Virus record (IMG/VR): IMGVR_UViG_2861736478_000001
Location: 12,387 to 76,386 of that record
DNA length: 64,000 bases
Strand: one strand, 5' to 3'
Origin: a virus
Taxonomy: Duplodnaviria; Caudoviricetes
In this document: positions 1,331-12,603 of the stretch, in pieces
Position numbering within the stretch: position 1 is the stretch's first letter
Layout: every line of letters begins with the position of its first letter
Position numbers and translations under genes: made by a program
Notes under the pieces: model-generated
Seen by the model: only the letters and a program-made list of their open reading frames with translations
Told to the model about the DNA's origin: nothing
The model's database searches: none

Positions 1331-1942
1331 TCACAGAGAGTCAAGACGCGCCTCTGTCAAGGGTTGCCACGCCCAAGTCGTCTCAGGTCCGTCTTGGGCC
1401 ACGAGGCTGAGGCTGCGGATGGTCACATCTCGGTCGGGAAGCCGCTTGCCGAGCGCGTTGATGATGGGTGCGGCCGGGCCGTCGGCGCTGCTGTAGGCGA
1501 CAGTGACATGGGGCGTCCAAAGGTCGTGAGCGAGCCGTCCTTCCTGCCCGGTGACCGTTCGGGTAGCCGTCTTGGCCGCTTCCAGCAGCGGCGTGAGCCG
1601 TTCGGCCGGCTGTGCTTCCAAGGCGACCGCCTCAGGGTGGTACAGCACGCGACCCAACGTCACCGAAATGGGGCCGACGTCGGCCAGCTGGTGCCCGGCG
1701 GCCTGAGCCATTTCGGCTGCCTGTGTGCTGGTGGTCTCGTGAGAGTAGCCAGCGATCAGCACCGTCAGATGGATATGGCTGAGTGGTACCAGGTCAAGCC
1801 CAGAAAGCCCGCCGAGGCGAGCTTGGGCTTCCTCCACGATGGCCACCGCCTCCGGTTCTTCGCCCAGCAACACGTGCCAGTAGAGCAAACCCTGGCCGGG
1901 CGGCAGCATCAGGGGCCGGCGAAGCTCCCAACGGTTGGCCAT
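1331..1942 (-). CDS. 2H phosphoesterase (2'-5' RNA ligase superfamily)
   Basis: Two HxT motifs (HIHLTV and TPHVTVAY) about 85 aa apart. Start at MANRW, 17 nt after the upstream stop. Confidence 0.85.
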   Translation of the reverse strand: MANRWELRRPLMLPPGQGLLYWHVLLGEEPEAVAIVEEAQARLGGLSGLDLVPLSHIHLTVLIAGYSHETTSTQAAEMAQAAGHQLADVGPISVTLGRVLYHPEAVALEAQPAERLTPLLEAAKTATRTVTGQEGRLAHDLWTPHVTVAYSSADGPAAPIINALGKRLPDRDVTIRSLSLVAQDGPETTWAWQPLTEARLDSL

Positions 1943-1959
1943 CTGCTCAGGTAAGGGGC

Positions 1960-3210
1960 TCACGCGTCCTCCGCCGCTGGAAGAAGAGCGCGAGCCGAGG
2001 TGAACGCGCTGATCTGCTCGCGCAACGTGGACACCGTATCGGAGCCGCGAAACTGAGGCGCTTGCAGGCGCGAGTCCATGCGGACCAGATAGCTGGTGAT
2101 CGTGGCCAACCGATGTTCGGGCGGCAAGAGCAGGGCAGGAGCGATGTGCTCGGCCGCCGCTTCGACGTCGTTCATCATCACGTAAGCGATCCCGGCGCCG
2201 AACCGCACCTGAGCCCACGAGGCGACAACCCGTGGAGCTCCATCGGCCCATGCGCTCTCCGCCGCGTCCGCCGCGGTCAAGGCCGCTCTCGCCTCCCTGG
2301 CCTGCAAAGCCACGGATAGGGCGTACAGCGACCGGCGCGGAGCGGGACACGACCAGGGCGTCACTCCGGAGTCGTCACTGACTACCTGCGCAGCGTCGTC
2401 CGCACGAAGGAGCGCCGCCTGCGCGCGCACGAAGTCCCCCAGCAGGCTCGCCGCGTTCGCCTCCTGGCACGCCAGGAGAACGCGCAGCGGAGTGGCCGGA
2501 CTGCAATCGAACCCGCGACGAGCCGCATCGGCCGAGATCGCATATCGGTGGCGCCAGCGCTCCGTCTTTGCTTGGGCGCTGAGCGCCGCGGCCGGGCTCG
2601 CGTCGGCTTCCTCAGCACACAGCCGCGCAGCTTCTCCGTAGACCGCGGCCGATTCGTCGTCGTAGAGGTCGCCCATGAGGATGCAAGCATGCGCGAGAAG
2701 GTCGGCGTCGATGCGGAACAACTCGCGGGTCTGCCGTAGCCGCTGTTTGCCACCGCGCAGAAGAGCGTGAATCTGGCGGTGGTAGCGGAGCACGCTGGCG
2801 AGCATCTGGGCGGGCGGTATCTGCGTGTGCCTCTCCCCGAGGTGGTAGCGGGTCTCATCGAGCATGGCGATGGTGGAGTCACCCACGTTGGTCCGCTCGA
2901 CCCACGAGGCGTGCTCGATGAGATCATCTACCGCGGGTGCCGCGGATCGGGTCGGACCCTGGAACAGGGTGACCTCGTCGATGCCGAACACGCGGCAGTA
3001 CAGGAGCGGATACGGGTCTTTGGGCCTGTTCGTTCCGGCCTCGTGAGACTTGATCCGCCGAACCACGGAATCGAACTCAGATAGCACAACGGAACAACTA
3101 CGCGCCGCCTTGTACAGCTCCGCAGCCAGCTGTTTCTGCGACCAGCCCGCTGTGCGCCTTTCGTCGCGGATGGTCTCGGCCCAGGCCGGGAGTTCGCCCG
3201 CATCGCTCAT
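1960..3210 (-). CDS. XRE-family HTH regulator with C-terminal helical/TPR-like domain
   Basis: N-terminal IRDERRTAGWSQKQLA...IKSHEAG HTH followed by about 300 aa of Ala/Leu-rich helical repeats. Confidence 0.8.
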   Translation of the reverse strand: MSDAGELPAWAETIRDERRTAGWSQKQLAAELYKAARSCSVVLSEFDSVVRRIKSHEAGTNRPKDPYPLLYCRVFGIDEVTLFQGPTRSAAPAVDDLIEHASWVERTNVGDSTIAMLDETRYHLGERHTQIPPAQMLASVLRYHRQIHALLRGGKQRLRQTRELFRIDADLLAHACILMGDLYDDESAAVYGEAARLCAEEADASPAAALSAQAKTERWRHRYAISADAARRGFDCSPATPLRVLLACQEANAASLLGDFVRAQAALLRADDAAQVVSDDSGVTPWSCPAPRRSLYALSVALQAREARAALTAADAAESAWADGAPRVVASWAQVRFGAGIAYVMMNDVEAAAEHIAPALLLPPEHRLATITSYLVRMDSRLQAPQFRGSDTVSTLREQISAFTSARALLPAAEDA

Positions 3211-3310
3211 GCCGCAGCACCTCGTCAGCAAGGAGGGGACACGCTCGTGTCCCTCAGTGTCCCCCATCGGCATCTGTTCGCGCATCGTTACTCACCGTTG
3301 TGATAGACGC

Positions 3311-3715
3311 ATGAGCGAGATCTCTAACGACACTGGTTTTGACCCGAGAATGATGCTGACCTGCCGGGAAGCGATGGACTACACCCTCGCTGAGCAGGTT
3401 CAGCGCTGGCGCGGGTTGCTTGGCATGCACGGGGAGCGGGACGCGAGATTCCGCCTGGCCGAGGTGGCGTGGGTGTCGGCGATGAACCAGACCACCCACG
3501 CCTACGCGATGGCATCGGCGACCAGGGCGCTGCTCCAAGGTGCGTCAATCCCTGCGATCGTGGCCGCGCTCGGGGTTGCCGACGTTGAGGCGTTCCGGCG
3601 GATGTGGCAACCGTGGGCCCAAGCTCAACCTCTGCTGTTCATACAGGGACACGGGGCGGTGTCTCCCCAGGACTGCGCGCGGGTCGGCCGACTACTCGCC
3701 AAGGCGCAGTTATGA
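3311..3715 (+). CDS. Hypothetical protein
   Basis: Divergent from the XRE-TPR gene, with GC-rich coding bias. Confidence 0.55.
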   Translation: MSEISNDTGFDPRMMLTCREAMDYTLAEQVQRWRGLLGMHGERDARFRLAEVAWVSAMNQTTHAYAMASATRALLQGASIPAIVAALGVADVEAFRRMWQPWAQAQPLLFIQGHGAVSPQDCARVGRLLAKAQL

Positions 3716-3886
3716 CCACCGCACACCTAGATCTCCCCGACCTGTTGCTGCCGGTGCCGCAGTTGGCGGGTCGGGGCTTCAACACCCGGAACTTCCCGAA
3801 TCCGTGGGGGCCGGGCTGCGAGCGGGCGCGGCGGCGAGCTGCCCCAGGCGAGAGGCCGGCGCCGCGCCCACCGAAAGCGACTTGCC

Positions 3887-4090
3887 ATGACCAGATGGGA
3901 ACCGCATGTCCCGCGGACGCCGACAACGCGAGTGCTCGAAACCTCCTCCGGAGGCACCTACGAGTTCTGCCACGAAGGCGGCCAGTACCTCGTCCTGCGC
4001 TGGAACGACACCCGCTACGAGGAGACCGGCAGAGGGTCGCATGCGAGGGCACGGGACGTATGGAAATCACTCACCGGTGCGAGGAGATGA
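3887..4090 (+). CDS. Small hypothetical protein of the type found beside XRE/DUF397 loci
   Basis: MTRWEPH..PTTRV..YEFC.EGG.Y.V.R...W..L.G pattern. Family assignment recalled, not searched. Confidence 0.55.
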   Translation: MTRWEPHVPRTPTTRVLETSSGGTYEFCHEGGQYLVLRWNDTRYEETGRGSHARARDVWKSLTGARR

Positions 4091-4343
4091 GCCCGTAAGG
4101 TTCGACGGCTATACCAGTGATATCCGTTCTGTGGTCACTGTGCGTGTCGCTGGCGGCAACGCGCACTGGGCTGAATAATGTGCTCAACGCCAGTTAGCCC
4201 AACCTTCACGACATGGGCGCAGTCTTTTGTCCGTTACGCTCCCTCGCGGGAGATTGTCCGGCCATGCCCTTAATGACTGATAGATGGCTTTCGTCACGTT
4301 CGCATGAAGATGTGCAAGAATTGCACAACCCCCTCTCGCCAGC

Positions 4344-5210
4344 ATGGACAATCCCAAGATGCAGCGCATCAGCCCTCCACTGCGCCAGCGCCACCTCGCT
4401 CAGATCCTTCGCGACCTGAGGTCCGATCGAGACCAGACGTTGAGCGACGCGATCACCCAGCTCCGACAGCTCGGACGGGCATGGAGCCGCACCAAGCTTT
4501 CCAGAGTCGAGACAGGGGAGAGCCTGCCAACTCCCGGTGACCTGGCCGATCTGCTGGACGTGTACGAGGTGAACTCCGACACGCGGGCGACATGCGAGGA
4601 GCTTGCCCGCCAAGCCCGCCTGAAGCCCTGGTGGAAGGAGTACGCAGCCGTAGTAGGGGAGTACGTTGCGCTTGAGACCGAAGCCACGATTGAACGCTCC
4701 TGGCAACCTCTGCTGGTTCCGGGTCTGCTCCAGACGGCGGACTACGCGCGGGAGATCTTCACTGCGGGCCAGCACGGCTCTTCGCCTCGCCTAGTAGAGC
4801 TCCAGCTCAAGGCACGTCTCGCCAGGCAGCGTGAACTTCTCGGCTGTGATCTTCCAGTCGAATTGCATGGGGTTATCGGTGAGCAGGCATTGCGCCGCAG
4901 GATCGGCACCCGAGACACCATGTTCGAGCAGCTCGAGAGGCTGGTCGTCATGGCCTCCTGGCCCAACGTGGTCATCCAAGTGCTTGAGGATTCAGTGGGT
5001 GCTCACCCGGGGCTGAGCGGCCCCTTCGTTCTGCTGTCCTTGCCTGGTGGGGCGAACTACGTGTACTTCGAGACGCCGCCGGATGAACGGGTGGCCGATA
5101 AGATCGACACCGTCCGTGAGTACGAGCGCTGCTTCGAGCGTCTCGCGGCCTTGGCGTTGACTCCCGAGCAGTCCGCCGTCTTCGTCTCGGAGATCCTCAA
5201 GGAGCTGTAG
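4344..5210 (+). CDS. XRE HTH-DUF5753 regulator (WhiJ/Scr1-like)
   Basis: HTH with KLSRVETG, then WW...YVALETEA...VPGLLQTADYAR...RLARQ...GEQALRR...GPFVLL...YFE, the DUF5753 signature. Confidence 0.9.
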   Translation: MDNPKMQRISPPLRQRHLAQILRDLRSDRDQTLSDAITQLRQLGRAWSRTKLSRVETGESLPTPGDLADLLDVYEVNSDTRATCEELARQARLKPWWKEYAAVVGEYVALETEATIERSWQPLLVPGLLQTADYAREIFTAGQHGSSPRLVELQLKARLARQRELLGCDLPVELHGVIGEQALRRRIGTRDTMFEQLERLVVMASWPNVVIQVLEDSVGAHPGLSGPFVLLSLPGGANYVYFETPPDERVADKIDTVREYERCFERLAALALTPEQSAVFVSEILKEL

Positions 5211-5441
5211 TTGCTGTCCCAGGAGTGGCAGAAGAGTTCGTGGTCGGACACCGCTGACGGCTGCGTCATGGTGCGACGTAACGGTGACCGTGTCGAGGTG
5301 GGGGATACGAAGCCGGAAGGGGCGGGGCTGGTGTTGTCCTTCACTCCGTTGGAGTGGTTGTGCTTCCGCGAGGGCTTCGTGGCCGGCCAGTTCGACCTGG
5401 AGGAGTGGCACGAGACGGGAGGCGTGAGCGCTTCCGGCTAG
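5211..5441 (+). CDS. DUF397 protein (BldB/Scr2-like)
   Basis: WQKSSWS...CVMV...VEVGDTK...L.FTP.EW..F..G pattern, directly after the XRE-DUF5753 gene. Confidence 0.9.
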   Translation: MLSQEWQKSSWSDTADGCVMVRRNGDRVEVGDTKPEGAGLVLSFTPLEWLCFREGFVAGQFDLEEWHETGGVSASG

Positions 5442-5701
5442 CTGGAACGTTGCATTCCCTGGGCCTCGGCGCGAGCGTCGTTTCGGCCCTGTCGGTACGC
5501 CTCTGAGAGTGTCTGGGGTTCCGGCAGGCCGTATGGCAGGGCGAGGAGTCCCAGGAGTGCTCCCACCAGGATCAACGCTACGAACGCGGCGGTGAGAGCG
5601 GGGTGTTCGGCGGTGTCTGGCGTTGTGACGCTGATGAGCATGGCGGTGGCCGCTCCGCACAACGCGGTTACAGCGCCCGTGACTTGGATGGCTCGCCTCA
5701 T
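5438..5701 (-). CDS. Small two-TM membrane protein
   Basis: Two hydrophobic segments followed by EAYRQGRNDAR. Confidence 0.6.
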   Translation of the reverse strand: MRRAIQVTGAVTALCGAATAMLISVTTPDTAEHPALTAAFVALILVGALLGLLALPYGLPEPQTLSEAYRQGRNDARAEAQGMQRSS

Positions 5702-6034
5702 TGGGGCCCCCTGAAATAGTTCGAAACCTTTCCCGTTTTGGGTGAAGATCACACTATGACACCGGCCGGGATTCCCGCACCATGCCCTCCATTAGCGACG
5801 ATAGGTGATCGTTATCTTTTCTTGCTGATCTAGAGGTTACGATCCGCAGTGGGCTTACGGGGCAAGGCTCTCGCGAGTGGCGGGTTATGGCCGTGGCCAA
5901 AACAGGCCGAACGAATCCATGGACACACACGGCGAGAGCGGTTTTTCTTGACGCTCACGCAGAAAGTTGACTCTTGCACTGCCGCATGTCAGTTGCAGGT
6001 GCACAGAGCGAGGAAGAGAAGGGAACGGTCCACG

Positions 6035-6313
6035 ATGGACTCCAATCTCAGGACGAAGATCGGCTTGTACCTTGCGGCTGGGGCGGCAGTCGTCGCGATC
6101 ATCCTGGCGGGCGCGCTCCCAGGCGCCGCCGACAGCGACCCCGGCGCGCCGCTGAGTTCGACCACGGCAGAGCCGATCCCGAGCCCTGAGTCTGAATCCG
6201 CCAGCGCTTCATCTGACGATTTGCAGGGCCCGGCCTCGACAAGCAGCCCGACGTCGACGCCGCGTTCGACATCCCCGGTGGCCGAGCGGAACGCGCACGG
6301 AAGCGGCTGGTAG
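6035..6313 (+). CDS. Small secreted peptide precursor ending in ...ERNAHGSGW
   Basis: AAGGGA RBS. Basic N-region (RTK), 22-aa hydrophobic core, GAA|DSD cleavage-like site, Ser/Thr/Pro-rich spacer, C-terminal GSGW. Confidence 0.7.
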   Translation: MDSNLRTKIGLYLAAGAAVVAIILAGALPGAADSDPGAPLSSTTAEPIPSPESESASASSDDLQGPASTSSPTSTPRSTSPVAERNAHGSGW

Positions 6314-6350
6314 AGCTGATACAGGCGCCTTCGCGCTCCGGAAGCAGCGC

Positions 6351-6635
6351 ATGCTGACACGACAGAACAGGCGCATGCGCGCATGCATGGTCGCCGCAAC
6401 CGCTGGTTGGGGCCTAAGTTCGCTCGCCGGCGCGCTCGTGGTGCTCGGCCCGGCCGGGCCGAGCACCCACGCCTTCAGCCTGCTCACAATGTGGCTTCTC
6501 GCCGTGCCGATCCCGGCCTCCGTATGCGCTGCACAACAGCGCCACCGAAAAGCCCGAGCAGCCACAGCTCGGCTCGCCTACGAACTCGGCCTTCTCCACG
6601 AACAGGACCTCGCCCCCACGATGCCCCTCCGGTGA
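6351..6635 (+). CDS. Small two-TM membrane protein (AYELGLLH motif)
   Basis: Two hydrophobic helices, then RHRK and AYELGLLH. The true start may be the ATG at 6375. Confidence 0.6.
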   Translation: MLTRQNRRMRACMVAATAGWGLSSLAGALVVLGPAGPSTHAFSLLTMWLLAVPIPASVCAAQQRHRKARAATARLAYELGLLHEQDLAPTMPLR

Positions 6636-6670
6636 AACGACGCAACGCATAAGCCGACTAGGAGAAACAG

Positions 6671-7654
6671 GTGTACAAGGCGCTCGGGCTCGACCACGAG
6701 GAGAGCCACGTCTACCAGTTCGTTCTGGCCAACAGCCCCATACCCCGCGGCGAGGTCATCGAGAGGTTCGGTGGCCCAGCGGAGAGGCTGTTAGGGAACC
6801 TGGCGGAACGCCATCTCACCATGGGCGATGAGCTGATCAGCGCGTGCAACCCGGCGCTGGCCTTGAGCGGTGGTGTGCTCCGCATCCAGAAGGAGTACAC
6901 CACCGCGAAGTCCGCACTGGATGACCTGGTCAGCCGCTTCAACGAGAACCCGAACAACTGGGAGTCGGCGGACAACCCGGTTGAGGTCATCCGCGATCCC
7001 GCGATCATCACGAAAACGTTCTCGGAGATCCGGGACACTGCGGTGCGGGAACTGAGGGCCATGTACACCTACCCCTACCAGTTCGTCACACCCTTGGTTG
7101 ACGACGTCGTGGAGCACACCACGACGTGCCGAATCCTGGTCGAGCCGAGCGTCTTCTCTGACCCCGCCGCCCGCCGGGACATCACCAAGTCGCACAACAG
7201 CGGGTGCGAGGTGCGAGTCGCGCCGGACGACGATCTCCCAACGAAGATGCTGGTGAAGGACCGAGAGCTGGCGATCATGCCGCGCGACCGAGAGACCGGC
7301 GCTGTCCTGGTGATCCAGCCCGGCCTGATGATGTCGTTAGTCCTGGCGGCCTTCGACGCCCGGTGGGCGCAAGGCGTACCGGCCCGCGCGTTCGTCCGGC
7401 GCACTGGCGCCGAATCAGGCACGCGAGTGCGCCGACCCAAGGCCGTTCTGTTCGACGAGGACGGATTGCAGATCCTCAGCATGCTGGCTGACGGGGCGAC
7501 GGACTCGATGATCGTCAAAGCGACCGGGGTGTCACAGCGCAACCTGACCCGCCGGATCGGCCAGTTCCTGGATTTCTGCGGCGCGAGGAGCCGATTCCAG
7601 CTGGGATTCATCGCGGCGACCAGCGAGTGGATGCCGAAGCGCCAGGCGTCGTAG
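6671..7654 (+). CDS. TrmB-wHTH / PLD-like sensor / LuxR-HTH transcriptional regulator
   Basis: AGGAG RBS. N-terminal LGLDHEESHVYQFVL (TrmB-like), central LPTKMLVKDRELAIMP, C-terminal ILSMLADGATDSMIVKATGVSQRNLTRRI...SRFQLG (LuxR HTH). Confidence 0.85.
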   Translation: MYKALGLDHEESHVYQFVLANSPIPRGEVIERFGGPAERLLGNLAERHLTMGDELISACNPALALSGGVLRIQKEYTTAKSALDDLVSRFNENPNNWESADNPVEVIRDPAIITKTFSEIRDTAVRELRAMYTYPYQFVTPLVDDVVEHTTTCRILVEPSVFSDPAARRDITKSHNSGCEVRVAPDDDLPTKMLVKDRELAIMPRDRETGAVLVIQPGLMMSLVLAAFDARWAQGVPARAFVRRTGAESGTRVRRPKAVLFDEDGLQILSMLADGATDSMIVKATGVSQRNLTRRIGQFLDFCGARSRFQLGFIAATSEWMPKRQAS

Positions 7655-7676
7655 CCCGGCTCCGCAAGCAGGTCCG

Positions 7677-8195
7677 CTAGCGAGCTCTGAATCGGAGCGT
7701 CGCGGCGTGCATATCCATGAGGGCATCGATCTGGCCGAACAGCACGTCGCGCATCTCCTGGCGGTCCTGCTCCGTCGCGCCGGGCACATTGTCGATCTCT
7801 GCCAGCTGGCGGAGGAGCTTCTGCTTGGTCCCCGCGGGAATGTCGTCCAAGCTGACCTTGGAGGCCGCCAGCTCGGTCTTGGCGCGCGCGTCGATCTCCT
7901 TGCGGAGCAGTTCCGCAGCGTCGGTGCGTCCAGTCGCCGCGATTTGCTCGGGGGTGGCGTAGAGGACGAGCCCGATGAGAACGAGCTCCCAGTCCTCCGC
8001 GATCTTCCGGCCGGCTTCGATGTTGCGCCACGTTCCGTCGCTGAAGCCGTACCCATCGGGGGCGATCTCCGTCAGCCGCTTCATCGCGGTCGACAGGCTC
8101 ATCTTGCGGCTTAGCGCAGCAGGTCGTTCCCGTAGCTGGCGTATGAGGCTGGCTTCGGGTGGCAGAGCTGGTGAGGCGCTCTTGTTGGTGGCCAC
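7677..8195 (-). CDS. Putative immunity repressor (XRE-like HTH)
   Basis: LIRQLRER...FSDGTWRNIEAG HTH. Divergent from a Cro/Xis-like gene at the head of the early operon. Confidence 0.7.
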   Translation of the reverse strand: MATNKSASPALPPEASLIRQLRERPAALSRKMSLSTAMKRLTEIAPDGYGFSDGTWRNIEAGRKIAEDWELVLIGLVLYATPEQIAATGRTDAAELLRKEIDARAKTELAASKVSLDDIPAGTKQKLLRQLAEIDNVPGATEQDRQEMRDVLFGQIDALMDMHAATLRFRAR

Positions 8196-8318
8196 AGCCC
8201 GGCTCCTTCGTGATTTCCGTGATCCTGCGGTTTTTGCGCTTGCTGCGCCAACCGTACCAGGGAGTACGCGGAATGCCAGTACCTACAGACACTTCTCAGC
8301 ATCACGATGACGTGCGCG

Positions 8319-8386
8319 ATTTTCGCGAATTTCTCGAAAATCCTTGACTTTCTCGAATGATCGACTAGCGTCTGATTGTGCTAGTA
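8319..8386 (+). promoter_or_regulatory. Early rightward promoter (TTGACT-N16-TAGCGT) overlapped by three TTTC(G/T)CGAA operator-like boxes
   Basis: TTGACT at 8344-8349 and TAGCGT at 8366-8371. Boxes lie near 8321, 8330 and 8349 in the repressor/cro intergenic region. Confidence 0.6.
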
Positions 8387-8409
8387 GATCATCACCAACC
8401 AAGGTCGCG

Positions 8410-8787
8410 ATGGGGGACATGAACCCCGTGAACGACCTCATCGAAAGCGTGCAAGACCTGGTCAACGGCATTCTCGACGCAGCGGCTCCCCCCAGGAAGA
8501 AGCTCTTCACCGTCCAAGAAGCCGCACTAGCGATGCGCGTGAGCCCATCCACCGTCCTCGGGCTCATCCGAGACAAGAGCCTGGCCAACATCTCGATCCA
8601 CAAGAAGAGCTTCCGCATCCCGCGCCAAGCCCTCCGAGACCACCTGTTCCACCGATACGTCGCCTCCGAACTCGCGGCGGCCACGCAAGAACTCGCACTC
8701 GTGCAGCTGGAGCTCAAGCGCCGCAAGGCCGAGCTCGACCGCGTCACCAAACGCCTCGCCCAAGCCAGCGACGCGCCCGCCCCATAG
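8410..8787 (+). CDS. Cro/excisionase-like HTH_17 protein with C-terminal coiled coil
   Basis: LFTVQEAALAMRVSPSTVLGLIRDKSL...KSFRIPR excisionase-type HTH. Confidence 0.8.
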   Translation: MGDMNPVNDLIESVQDLVNGILDAAAPPRKKLFTVQEAALAMRVSPSTVLGLIRDKSLANISIHKKSFRIPRQALRDHLFHRYVASELAAATQELALVQLELKRRKAELDRVTKRLAQASDAPAP

Positions 8788-12153: not shown

Positions 12154-12603
12154 ATGATCAGACAGGTGTTCGTCGCGGACACGCCGTTCAGTCCCGAGCA
12201 GATCTACCACCAGGTCAGCCTGACGGAGCTCACCCTCGTTGTGGGCCAGCTCCGTGTCCCGGCCTCGGGAGGCGACTTGAGCGCCCTCGTCGACGCCGAG
12301 CGGATCGCCGACAAGCTGGGGCGCGTGGTTGCCGCCTACCACCGTGACCTGAAGATCCGGATCGGCCAGCTCCAGCGCGCGGACGAGCAGCGAGCGACCG
12401 CCCCCGCGCTGTGCGCCTGCGGCCAGCCGGCCGAGCCCGGCATCACGCACCAGACGGACGCGCCCTGCTACCGCGACGAGTCCCGCACCGCCGCCACACT
12501 CGAGCCGGAGAGCGCCCTGGGCGACATCGACCCGCACCTAGCCAAGGTGGTGGATCGCGTGTTCGCGACCCCCACCCACGAAGCCACTCAACCCGCAAGC
12601 TAA
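12154..12603 (+). CDS. Hypothetical protein (CACG..H..C motif)
   Basis: GGAG RBS and coding bias. Confidence 0.6.
   Translation: MIRQVFVADTPFSPEQIYHQVSLTELTLVVGQLRVPASGGDLSALVDAERIADKLGRVVAAYHRDLKIRIGQLQRADEQRATAPALCACGQPAEPGITHQTDAPCYRDESRTAATLEPESALGDIDPHLAKVVDRVFATPTHEATQPAS

Follow-up and report, generated by a model that had tools for sequence, protein, structure and literature searches.

Peptide communication between bacteriophages has, to our knowledge, so far been described only in Bacillota, in arbitrium and other RRNPP systems. In arbitrium (AimP-AimR-AimX), which is carried by SPbeta-like phages of Bacillus, a pro-peptide is exported by the Sec pathway, its C-terminal residues are both conserved and diversifying, and the receptor combines a helix-turn-helix (HTH) with a tetratricopeptide repeat (TPR) domain. 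The present work concerns a locus at positions 6035–7654 of a 64,000-nt stretch of viral DNA (Caudoviricetes; IMG/VR record IMGVR_UViG_2861736478_000001, positions 12,387 to 76,386), referred to as the window, in which genes for a small secreted peptide, a membrane protein and a TrmB-LuxR regulator adjoin a candidate immunity repressor. No description of such a system in actinophages was found in the literature, and a survey of RRNPP systems gives small molecules as the typical signals of Actinomycetota, with peptide quorum sensing not described as the norm (PMC10075063).

The locus is read here, with a probability of roughly 0.42, as a conserved prophage signalling module that would feed the lysis-lysogeny switch, the C-terminal peptide serving as the signal and being sensed by the regulator either directly or via proteins with two transmembrane segments (2-TM proteins). 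The window was taken from a prophage in an actinomycete genome, with Nonomuraea species as the nearest relatives. Its status as prophage DNA follows from the presence of RecE-like and RecT-like recombination genes together with genes for WhiB, a tyrosine recombinase, the terminase large subunit, a P22-type coat protein and a CHAP endolysin. The same locus was also found in a related 43-kb IMG/VR provirus. The features of the locus and its surroundings are:

6035–6313, + strand: pre-pro-peptide of 92 amino acids (aa) with a Sec signal, an A-x-A type site, a variable acidic P/S/T linker and the C-terminus N-A-H-G-S-G-W
6351–6635, + strand: operon 2-TM hairpin protein, 94 aa, with the cytosolic tail R-x-A-Y-E-L-G-x-L-H
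6671–7654, + strand: regulator, 327 aa, with a winged HTH of TrmB type, then a coiled coil, a PLD-like domain in which the catalytic His is missing, and a LuxR-type HTH
7677–8195, − strand: CI/XRE-type repressor candidate, 172 aa, with an N-terminal HTH and a helical C-terminal domain
8196–8409: switch region, with three TTTCNCGAA operators (8321–8357) overlapping the early promoter
8410–8787, + strand: first early gene, encoding an HTH_17 (MerR/excisionase-like) DNA-binding protein (Pfam HTH_17, E 1.5e-6)
5753–6034: intergenic or leader region of the peptide operon, conserved, with divergent genes on either side
5438–5752, − strand: divergent small 2-TM protein, longest open reading frame (ORF) 104 aa, likely start Met at 5701 (87 aa), cytosolic tail A-Y-R-Q-G
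980–1165, − strand: third paralogue of the 2-TM proteins, 61 aa, single TM segment, with the same cytosolic tail A-Y-E-L-G-I-L-H as the 2-TM protein of the operon

The peptide operon and the adjoining switch

The initial annotation had proposed that the peptide, 2-TM and regulator genes form an operon that converges on the repressor. Three + strand ORFs are indeed present across 6035–7654, separated by gaps of 37 and 35 nt and each preceded by a Shine-Dalgarno-like sequence, an arrangement by which they constitute one tight operon. The convergence is likewise real, as the stop codon of the regulator lies 22 nt from that of the repressor gene, and no terminator-like site was predicted between the two genes.

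The whole arrangement is common to five to six prophages with wide synteny, the close relatives coming from N. longicatena, Nonomuraea sp. NPDC050328, Streptosporangium saharense and two or three public sequencing-run assemblies. Across four related loci, DNA identity to the window is 93, 88, 81 and 71% for the regulator gene and 94, 92, 83 and 69% for the repressor gene; for the peptide gene it is 71–77%, counting alignable parts only. The left flank of the module is variable among these relatives. The peptide ORF was found in every one of them, with indels that are always multiples of three, and in the four closest loci the last conserved codons carry synonymous changes only (GCG/GCC, CAC/CAT, GGA/GGC). 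Given this pattern, the ORF is coding rather than a chance reading frame. An antisense ORF at 5989–6399 was considered as a real gene and rejected, since conservation follows the + frame and leaves the antisense ORF as its shadow.

The encoded peptide begins with a basic n-region and a hydrophobic core of ~20 residues, followed by P-G-A-A↓D-S-D, a signal peptidase I-type site (the arrow marks the cleavage point), and its tail part is acidic, rich in P/S/T and ends in N-A-H-G-S-G-W. This heptamer is found in the Nonomuraea and run-assembly copies and becomes Q-M-H-G-S-G-W in S. saharense. Among the close relatives the mature part varies from 33 to 96 residues in length, whereas conservation is seen in the signal peptide and the final seven residues, a pattern that fits selection on the two ends of the protein only. 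Searches of Pfam, PHROGs and PADLOC returned no matches to the peptide, and homologues among 5.8 billion proteins came from the same prophage clade only. The idea that the host encodes further peptides with this tail was rejected: its 11.5-Mb genome holds one other such ORF, of 35 codons and lacking a signal peptide.

Across the wider family, each of the 19 tabulated precursors, and each of those found afterwards, has a signal peptide and an A-x-A↓[D/E/S] site. The pro-region spans 30 to 115 residues and in clade A shows no conservation while the tail is kept. Only the last 5–7 residues of the secreted protein are universally constrained, which upholds the emphasis that the initial annotation had placed on the C-terminus. 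The tail follows the pattern x-x-[H/D/S/T]-x-G-G-[M/W], with G-S-G-W in the clade of the window, and occurs in >20 variants: x-x-H-G-S-G-W and Q-A-H-L-G-G-W in the clade of the window and its sister, H-[M/V/T/F/A]-G-G-M in the second clade, S-D-x-G-G-W and N-G-x-x-G-G-W in the third and N-x-T-T-G-G-M in the fourth, with A-G-M and G-G-G-V as rare endings.

The regulator of the window alone gave no Pfam match above threshold and no PHROG or PADLOC match. It belongs to a family of proteins of ~325 aa in which 6559 representative clusters score at E ≤ 1e-3 and 601 at E ≤ 1e-30. A profile of 82 family members matches TrmBL2 over positions 5–248 (E 7e-20) and, over positions 260–326, the LuxR-type HTHs of DevR, NarL, GerE and VraR (E 1e-8 to 1e-5); Pfam TrmB was detected in 71 and Pfam GerE in 60 of the 82 relatives. 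Foldseek matched an AF2 model of the regulator (pLDDT, the predicted local distance difference test, 88.3) to TrmBL2 (E 4.6e-10), TrmB and the PLD-fold proteins Nuc, Zucchini and PLD3. By profile and model, residues 257–317 form a four-helix LuxR-type HTH at the place where TrmB has its C-terminal sugar-binding barrel. The winged HTH, PLD-like domain and LuxR HTH named in the initial annotation were all recovered in this way; the ligand pocket that accompanied them there was not demonstrated. The H-x-K-x4-D motif of PLD enzymes is degenerate, with the family consensus L-P-x-K-L-x-I-A-D: P190 stands at the presumed place of the catalytic His, as assigned by eye, K192 is invariant in the six closest sequences and D197 is conserved in the family. 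The PLD-like domain is therefore non-catalytic and could take a ligand. Neither a TPR domain nor a domain for binding acyl-homoserine lactone autoinducers was found in the regulator by profile, Pfam or fold search.

The adjoining gene had been taken as the immunity repressor that controls the early operon, and its architecture supports this. An AF2 model of the 172-aa product, built with 23 homologues (pLDDT 83), aligned best in VIA-align with CI of phage TP901-1, over the N-terminal domain of that repressor (Z 9.2, root mean square deviation 1.8 Å over 72 residues), followed by XRE-family HTHs, and its look-alikes in the ESM Atlas were Cro/C1 HTH proteins. Other matches were weak, with Foldseek E-values above 0.3 and Pfam HTH_31 below threshold (best E 0.037), and searches against PDB sequences, with the protein singly and as a profile, gave chance matches only. 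The early promoter, read directly from the sequence as the hexamers TTGACT (8344–8349) and TAGCGT (8366–8371) separated by 16 nt, faces the early operon, and the three TTTCNCGAA copies overlap its −35 element. This sequence occurs six times in the window against 0.76 expected, with three of the six in the switch region. The layout of a repressor gene divergent from an operator-bearing early promoter is conserved in five loci, and the product of the first early gene is called as 117–125 aa in relatives. Because the TP901-1 CI fold match, the Cro/C1 look-alikes and the divergent operator-bearing promoter agree, the reading of 7677–8195 as a CI-like repressor of the early operon is well supported by architecture, if not proven. 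Control of the peptide operon by the same operator is not supported: TTTCNCGAA is absent from 5753–6034, and no shared motif is conserved across loci.

The 280-bp leader of the peptide operon shows DNA identities of 92, 92, 80 and 72% to the four related loci, as high as those of the regulator and repressor genes, and several of its blocks are invariant in all five loci, even where proteins are only 60–67% identical. The region may hold a structured leader or many closely packed binding sites. Rfam searches over 5200–8600 gave chance-level matches alone, a pattern of the conserved leader retrieved the known loci plus one chance match from the genome and viral collections, and 5700–6670 searched as DNA against 401 family genomes gave trivial short matches only.

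The 2-TM protein of the operon is predicted to form an N-in/C-in hairpin in which the two segments are joined by ~7 loop residues; its cytosolic tail is basic and conserved and includes A-Y-E-L-G-L-L-H. Wherever the module converges on the repressor, a 2-TM protein with a tail of the R-x-x-Y-x-x-G-x-x-H-x-R type sits between the peptide and regulator genes, and an equivalent by position and motif is present in clades B and C. Of 19 loci examined, 15 have an orthologue of the second 2-TM protein (5438–5752), divergently transcribed and 170–330 nt upstream of the peptide gene; all these orthologues have two TM segments and a tail that reads A-Y-x-x-G or nearly so. By their sequences, these two proteins and the 980–1165 product make up a small paralogous family within one prophage. 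Pfam, PHROGs and PADLOC held no matches to the 2-TM proteins, and the ESM Atlas gave nothing above 0.85 for the 2-TM protein. The initial annotation had seen a 2-TM protein in the operon, as is the case, but offered no explanation for it and missed the second paralogue. As conserved members of the module, both 2-TM proteins need a role in any mechanism, and they may be the real sensor.

A perfect palindrome of 14+14 nt lies within the 2-TM gene at 6440–6467, at the codons of the loop. The hairpin is kept in N. longicatena and Nonomuraea sp. NPDC050328 by a double change from T-A to C-G that alters two amino acids, and is weaker or absent in two more distant loci. It may act as an RNA hairpin that uncouples expression of the peptide and the regulator.

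Distribution of the module and co-variation of its parts

Homologues of the repressor were sought in 401 genomes sampled from Streptosporangiales, and all 35 places found, in 33 of the genomes, were fetched. A TrmB-LuxR homologue with a signal-peptide ORF upstream was present at 26 places, the repressor homologue stood alone without the module at eight, and one was uninformative with its contig cut off, so that the module occupies 26 of 34 informative loci. Outside the window's own clade, the TrmB-LuxR homologues of the carriers are 24–43% identical to the window regulator (E 1e-14 to 1e-70). A profile of the second clade gave further loci, including IMG/VR proviruses of 79–95 kb, and the module recurs in ~30 related prophages in total; the carriers retrieved were prophages and IMG/VR contigs only. 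Two gene orders were observed among the 26, with 19 loci convergent on the repressor and seven co-directional, having repressor, peptide and regulator on one strand. The stop codons of regulator and repressor are separated by 1–22 nt in the window and in 10 further loci where the window repressor matched. Gaps between the peptide and 2-TM genes are short, and in some loci the called ORFs abut or overlap. Linkage holds at regulator identities of 26–30% and repressor identities of 25–36%. Being kept in two gene orders and at such low identity, the linkage of peptide, regulator and repressor survives both rearrangement and deep divergence.

One prophage, with a repressor 70% identical to that of the window, has neither peptide nor regulator and carries instead genes for two membrane proteins, one of 404 aa with six TM segments and one of 106 aa with two. 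As these genes replace the module there, the slot beside the repressor is exchangeable.

Outside these prophages, Streptomyces phage Chymera (KU958700), an isolated phage with host S. venezuelae ATCC 10712, was the only match among 50,697 phage records. The TrmB-LuxR profile aligns with its gp29 from end to end (hhalign probability 98.3%, E 1.6e-14), gp30 is a protein of 59 aa with a signal peptide and a mature part that begins and ends with D-P-G-W-G, and gp31 has hydrophobic segments at both ends. These genes (2692–4361) are annotated as hypothetical and adjoin an integrase and an annotated immunity repressor. Chymera thus resembles the window in possessing a TrmB-LuxR regulator, a secreted small protein with a G-W-containing C-terminus and a membrane protein, all near a repressor. 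It differs in that the peptide operon is divergent from the regulator and the tail is D-P-G-W-G rather than G-G-[M/W]. By annotation the integrase lies between the module and the immunity repressor, in a neighbourhood unlike that of the window, and the position of its repressor is unrelated. On this sequence comparison, gp29–31 are a looser version of the module. Searches of the phage collection with the window DNA, the window regulator and a clade B regulator each gave no match, and a metagenome scan with the regulator retrieved no relative.

The initial annotation had pointed to small secreted ORFs with G-W-like motifs beside TrmB-LuxR genes in actinomycetes. This association stands for the ~30 related prophages and, loosely, for Chymera, but not for the chromosomal members of the family. 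Small secreted peptides as companions of the whole TrmB-LuxR family were accordingly rejected: across 80 distant, mostly chromosomal loci, a secreted S8 subtilase or a 212-aa secreted protein with the same C-terminus recurs as the neighbour instead. In Catellatospora, Streptomyces and relatives these subtilases are of 1100–1280 aa and end in a conserved R-A-Y-G-L-R or K-A-Y-L-L-K, the ending that the 212-aa protein shares.

Co-variation of peptide and receptor across gene neighbourhoods, proposed initially as a check, was surveyed on a tree of 21 regulators, and the tail was found to diversify roughly along it, which is also the behaviour of arbitrium and Phr peptides. Tail types fall into clades, pairs of regulators >90% identical share the heptamer, and the less alike two regulators are, the more their tails differ. 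Three of the seven tail positions already differ in one pair with regulators 86% identical, whereas two regulators at 76% share a tail. Together, these comparisons fit co-diversification of tail and regulator with some exchange.

Several other features lie to the left of the module within the window. Just upstream, at 4344–5441, a WhiJ-like HTH_31/DUF5753 regulator is paired with a DUF397 protein, and the pair is kept in all close relatives. At 1331–3285 on the − strand, a 441-aa XRE-type HTH protein precedes a 2H phosphoesterase (Pfam 2_5_RNA_ligase2, E 3e-14), and this pair is not kept in the related prophages. The XRE regulator (1960–3285), labelled XRE-TPR at first reading, was considered as the true receptor and rejected as a conserved partner, being absent from the related prophages and having no Pfam TPR. 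An ARAGORN call of tRNA-Asp (GTC) at 2182–2257 on the − strand falls inside the ORF of this 441-aa regulator and is probably spurious, or else a relic resembling a tRNA.

Possible mechanism and competing explanations

In the proposed mechanism, the disordered pro-region would be trimmed outside the cell to release a short C-terminal peptide, which would accumulate with the density of phage-carrying cells. It could then be sensed by either of two routes. After re-import, the peptide might bind the TrmB-LuxR regulator in its PLD-like domain; alternatively, the peptide might act at the membrane on the 2-TM proteins, the cytosolic A-Y-x-x-G tails of which would hold or release the regulator. The regulator in turn would alter transcription at the switch, at the conserved leader that precedes its operon, or at both. 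Since the genes converge with no room for a terminator, transcription of the operon could also interfere directly with expression of the repressor. The effect could be towards lysogeny or towards induction.

A number of observations weigh against peptide signalling through this module. The fold of the proposed receptor is not known to bind peptides. Its closest solved relative, TrmBL2, lacks the C-terminal sugar-binding subdomain of TrmB, and the profile match covers only the part from the winged HTH to the PLD-like domain; TrmBL2 itself is not known to bind sugar. Two or three paralogous membrane proteins are conserved and yet have no role in a simple model of import and binding. The precursors are long, at 72–180 aa, and in clades C and D, though not in the clade of the window, the pro-region itself contains a conserved motif, ~16 residues long and resembling T-Q-T-V-T-N-P-D-G-S-K-x-I-T-K-T. 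This motif would fit a functional secreted protein better than a disposable pro-peptide, and in clade C/D phages it may mark a second functional part of that protein. The gene order also departs from RRNPP systems, in which the pro-peptide gene lies directly downstream of the receptor gene, whereas here the peptide gene comes first with a membrane-protein gene intervening. Given that the loci are kin and shared ancestry confounds the comparison, the correlation of tail and regulator is not independent evidence. Finally, the eight loci with a related repressor but no module indicate that the module is not essential to the switch.

Part of the same evidence would be accounted for by a cell-autonomous sensor of the envelope or of secretion, in which the secreted protein acts in cis on 2-TM proteins that tether the regulator by their A-Y-x-x-G tails. 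A host extracellular protease, envelope stress or secretion load would then release the regulator, and the prophage would be sensing conditions for induction rather than communicating from cell to cell. Conservation of two 2-TM paralogues with a shared cytosolic motif around the peptide gene would be expected of such a device, as would the closeness of the peptide and 2-TM ORFs, which in some loci abut or overlap. Long stalks rich in P/S/T would suit a protein that spans the wall, as would the clade C/D motif, and the S8 subtilases beside chromosomal relatives of the regulator point the same way. Nevertheless, the extracellular loop of the 2-TM protein, at ~7 residues, is short for a receptor, the canonical form of the cleavage sites speaks for release of the secreted protein from the membrane, and diversification of the tail among close phages is more easily explained by private signalling channels. 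The sensor is considered unlikely. That diversification could also reflect an arms race, were the module a cassette for superinfection exclusion, defence or lysogenic conversion whose secreted and membrane proteins alter the surface or block DNA entry by related phages, with the regulator controlling only their expression. In actinophages, lysogen-expressed genes beside the repressor often encode small membrane proteins with exclusion or defence roles, and other accessory genes are found nearby here, namely the WhiJ-like HTH_31/DUF5753 and DUF397 pair and the 2H phosphoesterase. However, PADLOC, PHROGs and Pfam provide no match for such a cassette, conservation of the last 5–7 residues is hard to explain for a surface effector with 3-fold variation in the length of its body, and a dedicated regulator with two HTHs is kept with the peptide through changes of gene order and down to 26% identity. 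A cassette of this kind is judged improbable.

It is very improbable that the genes have no joint function and are independent neighbours travelling together by shared prophage ancestry only. All carriers are related Streptosporangiales prophages with wide synteny, and their co-occurrence is in part inherited. Against this, the linkage persists in two gene orders at the regulator (26–30%) and repressor (25–36%) identities given above, the flanks left of the module are variable, and Chymera has its looser version in a neighbourhood that is different by annotation.

Returning to the signalling module, a bolder form of this reading is offered only tentatively: that the locus represents a new class of actinophage peptide communication, independent of arbitrium, in which a C-terminal x-x-H-x-G-G-[M/W] oligopeptide, sensed by the TrmB-PLD-LuxR regulator and its 2-TM partners, sets lysis versus lysogeny and the tail variants serve as private channels. 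If true, viral communication would have evolved more than once, the large uncharacterised TrmB-LuxR family, with its 6559 representative clusters, would gain its first candidate class of ligand, and a new kind of membrane partner would be added. The question is directly testable, as the candidate signal is a defined 5–7-mer with >20 natural variants and a looser version is found in the isolated phage Chymera.

Comparison with known systems

Like arbitrium, the module is encoded by temperate phages and comprises a Sec-exported pro-peptide with a conserved C-terminus and a transcription factor alongside, with tail variants between related phages. The regulator is nevertheless of a different make, with a TrmB winged HTH, a PLD-like domain and a LuxR HTH where arbitrium has an HTH-TPR protein. 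The module further has two or three conserved 2-TM proteins and precursors 2–4 times longer, its hosts are of the phylum Actinomycetota, no aimX-like output was identified in it, and no part of it shows homology to arbitrium. Because the receptor has no TPR domain, the module is not a member of arbitrium or of the RRNPP family. The initial description of the locus as arbitrium-like therefore remains plausible as a statement of function, given the export signal and the conserved C-terminus, and does not extend to membership.

Other RRNPP systems (Rap-Phr, PlcR-PapR, NprR-NprX, PrgX) share with the module a secreted pro-peptide, which in the module would likewise be matured to a C-terminal oligopeptide. 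They differ in their TPR receptors and in gene order, and import by Opp is assumed here. Maturation of Phr peptides uses secreted proteases of the subtilisin type. A likeness to Rap-Phr-type systems may be seen in the chromosomal relatives of the regulator, which adjoin S8 subtilases.

The archaeal proteins TrmB and TrmBL2, which are sugar regulators and a chromatin protein (PDB 3qph, 5box), resemble the regulator in their N-terminal winged HTH, long dimerisation helix and PLD-like domain. In the regulator a LuxR-type HTH replaces the sugar-binding barrel of TrmB, and the module is bacterial and phage-borne.

VqmA of vibriophage VP882 and LuxR of Aeromonas phage ARM81ld are phage-encoded receptors for host quorum signals; these phages listen to small molecules of the host and make no signal of their own. 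The module is similar in that a phage transcription factor with a LuxR-type DNA-binding domain could couple a diffusible signal to the lysis-lysogeny decision, but it encodes the candidate signal itself, and its regulator has no autoinducer-binding domain. Compared with the known defence models in PADLOC, the module gave no match. Judged by its sequence, it stands as a serious candidate for peptide signalling, assembled from parts unlike those of any known phage communication system.

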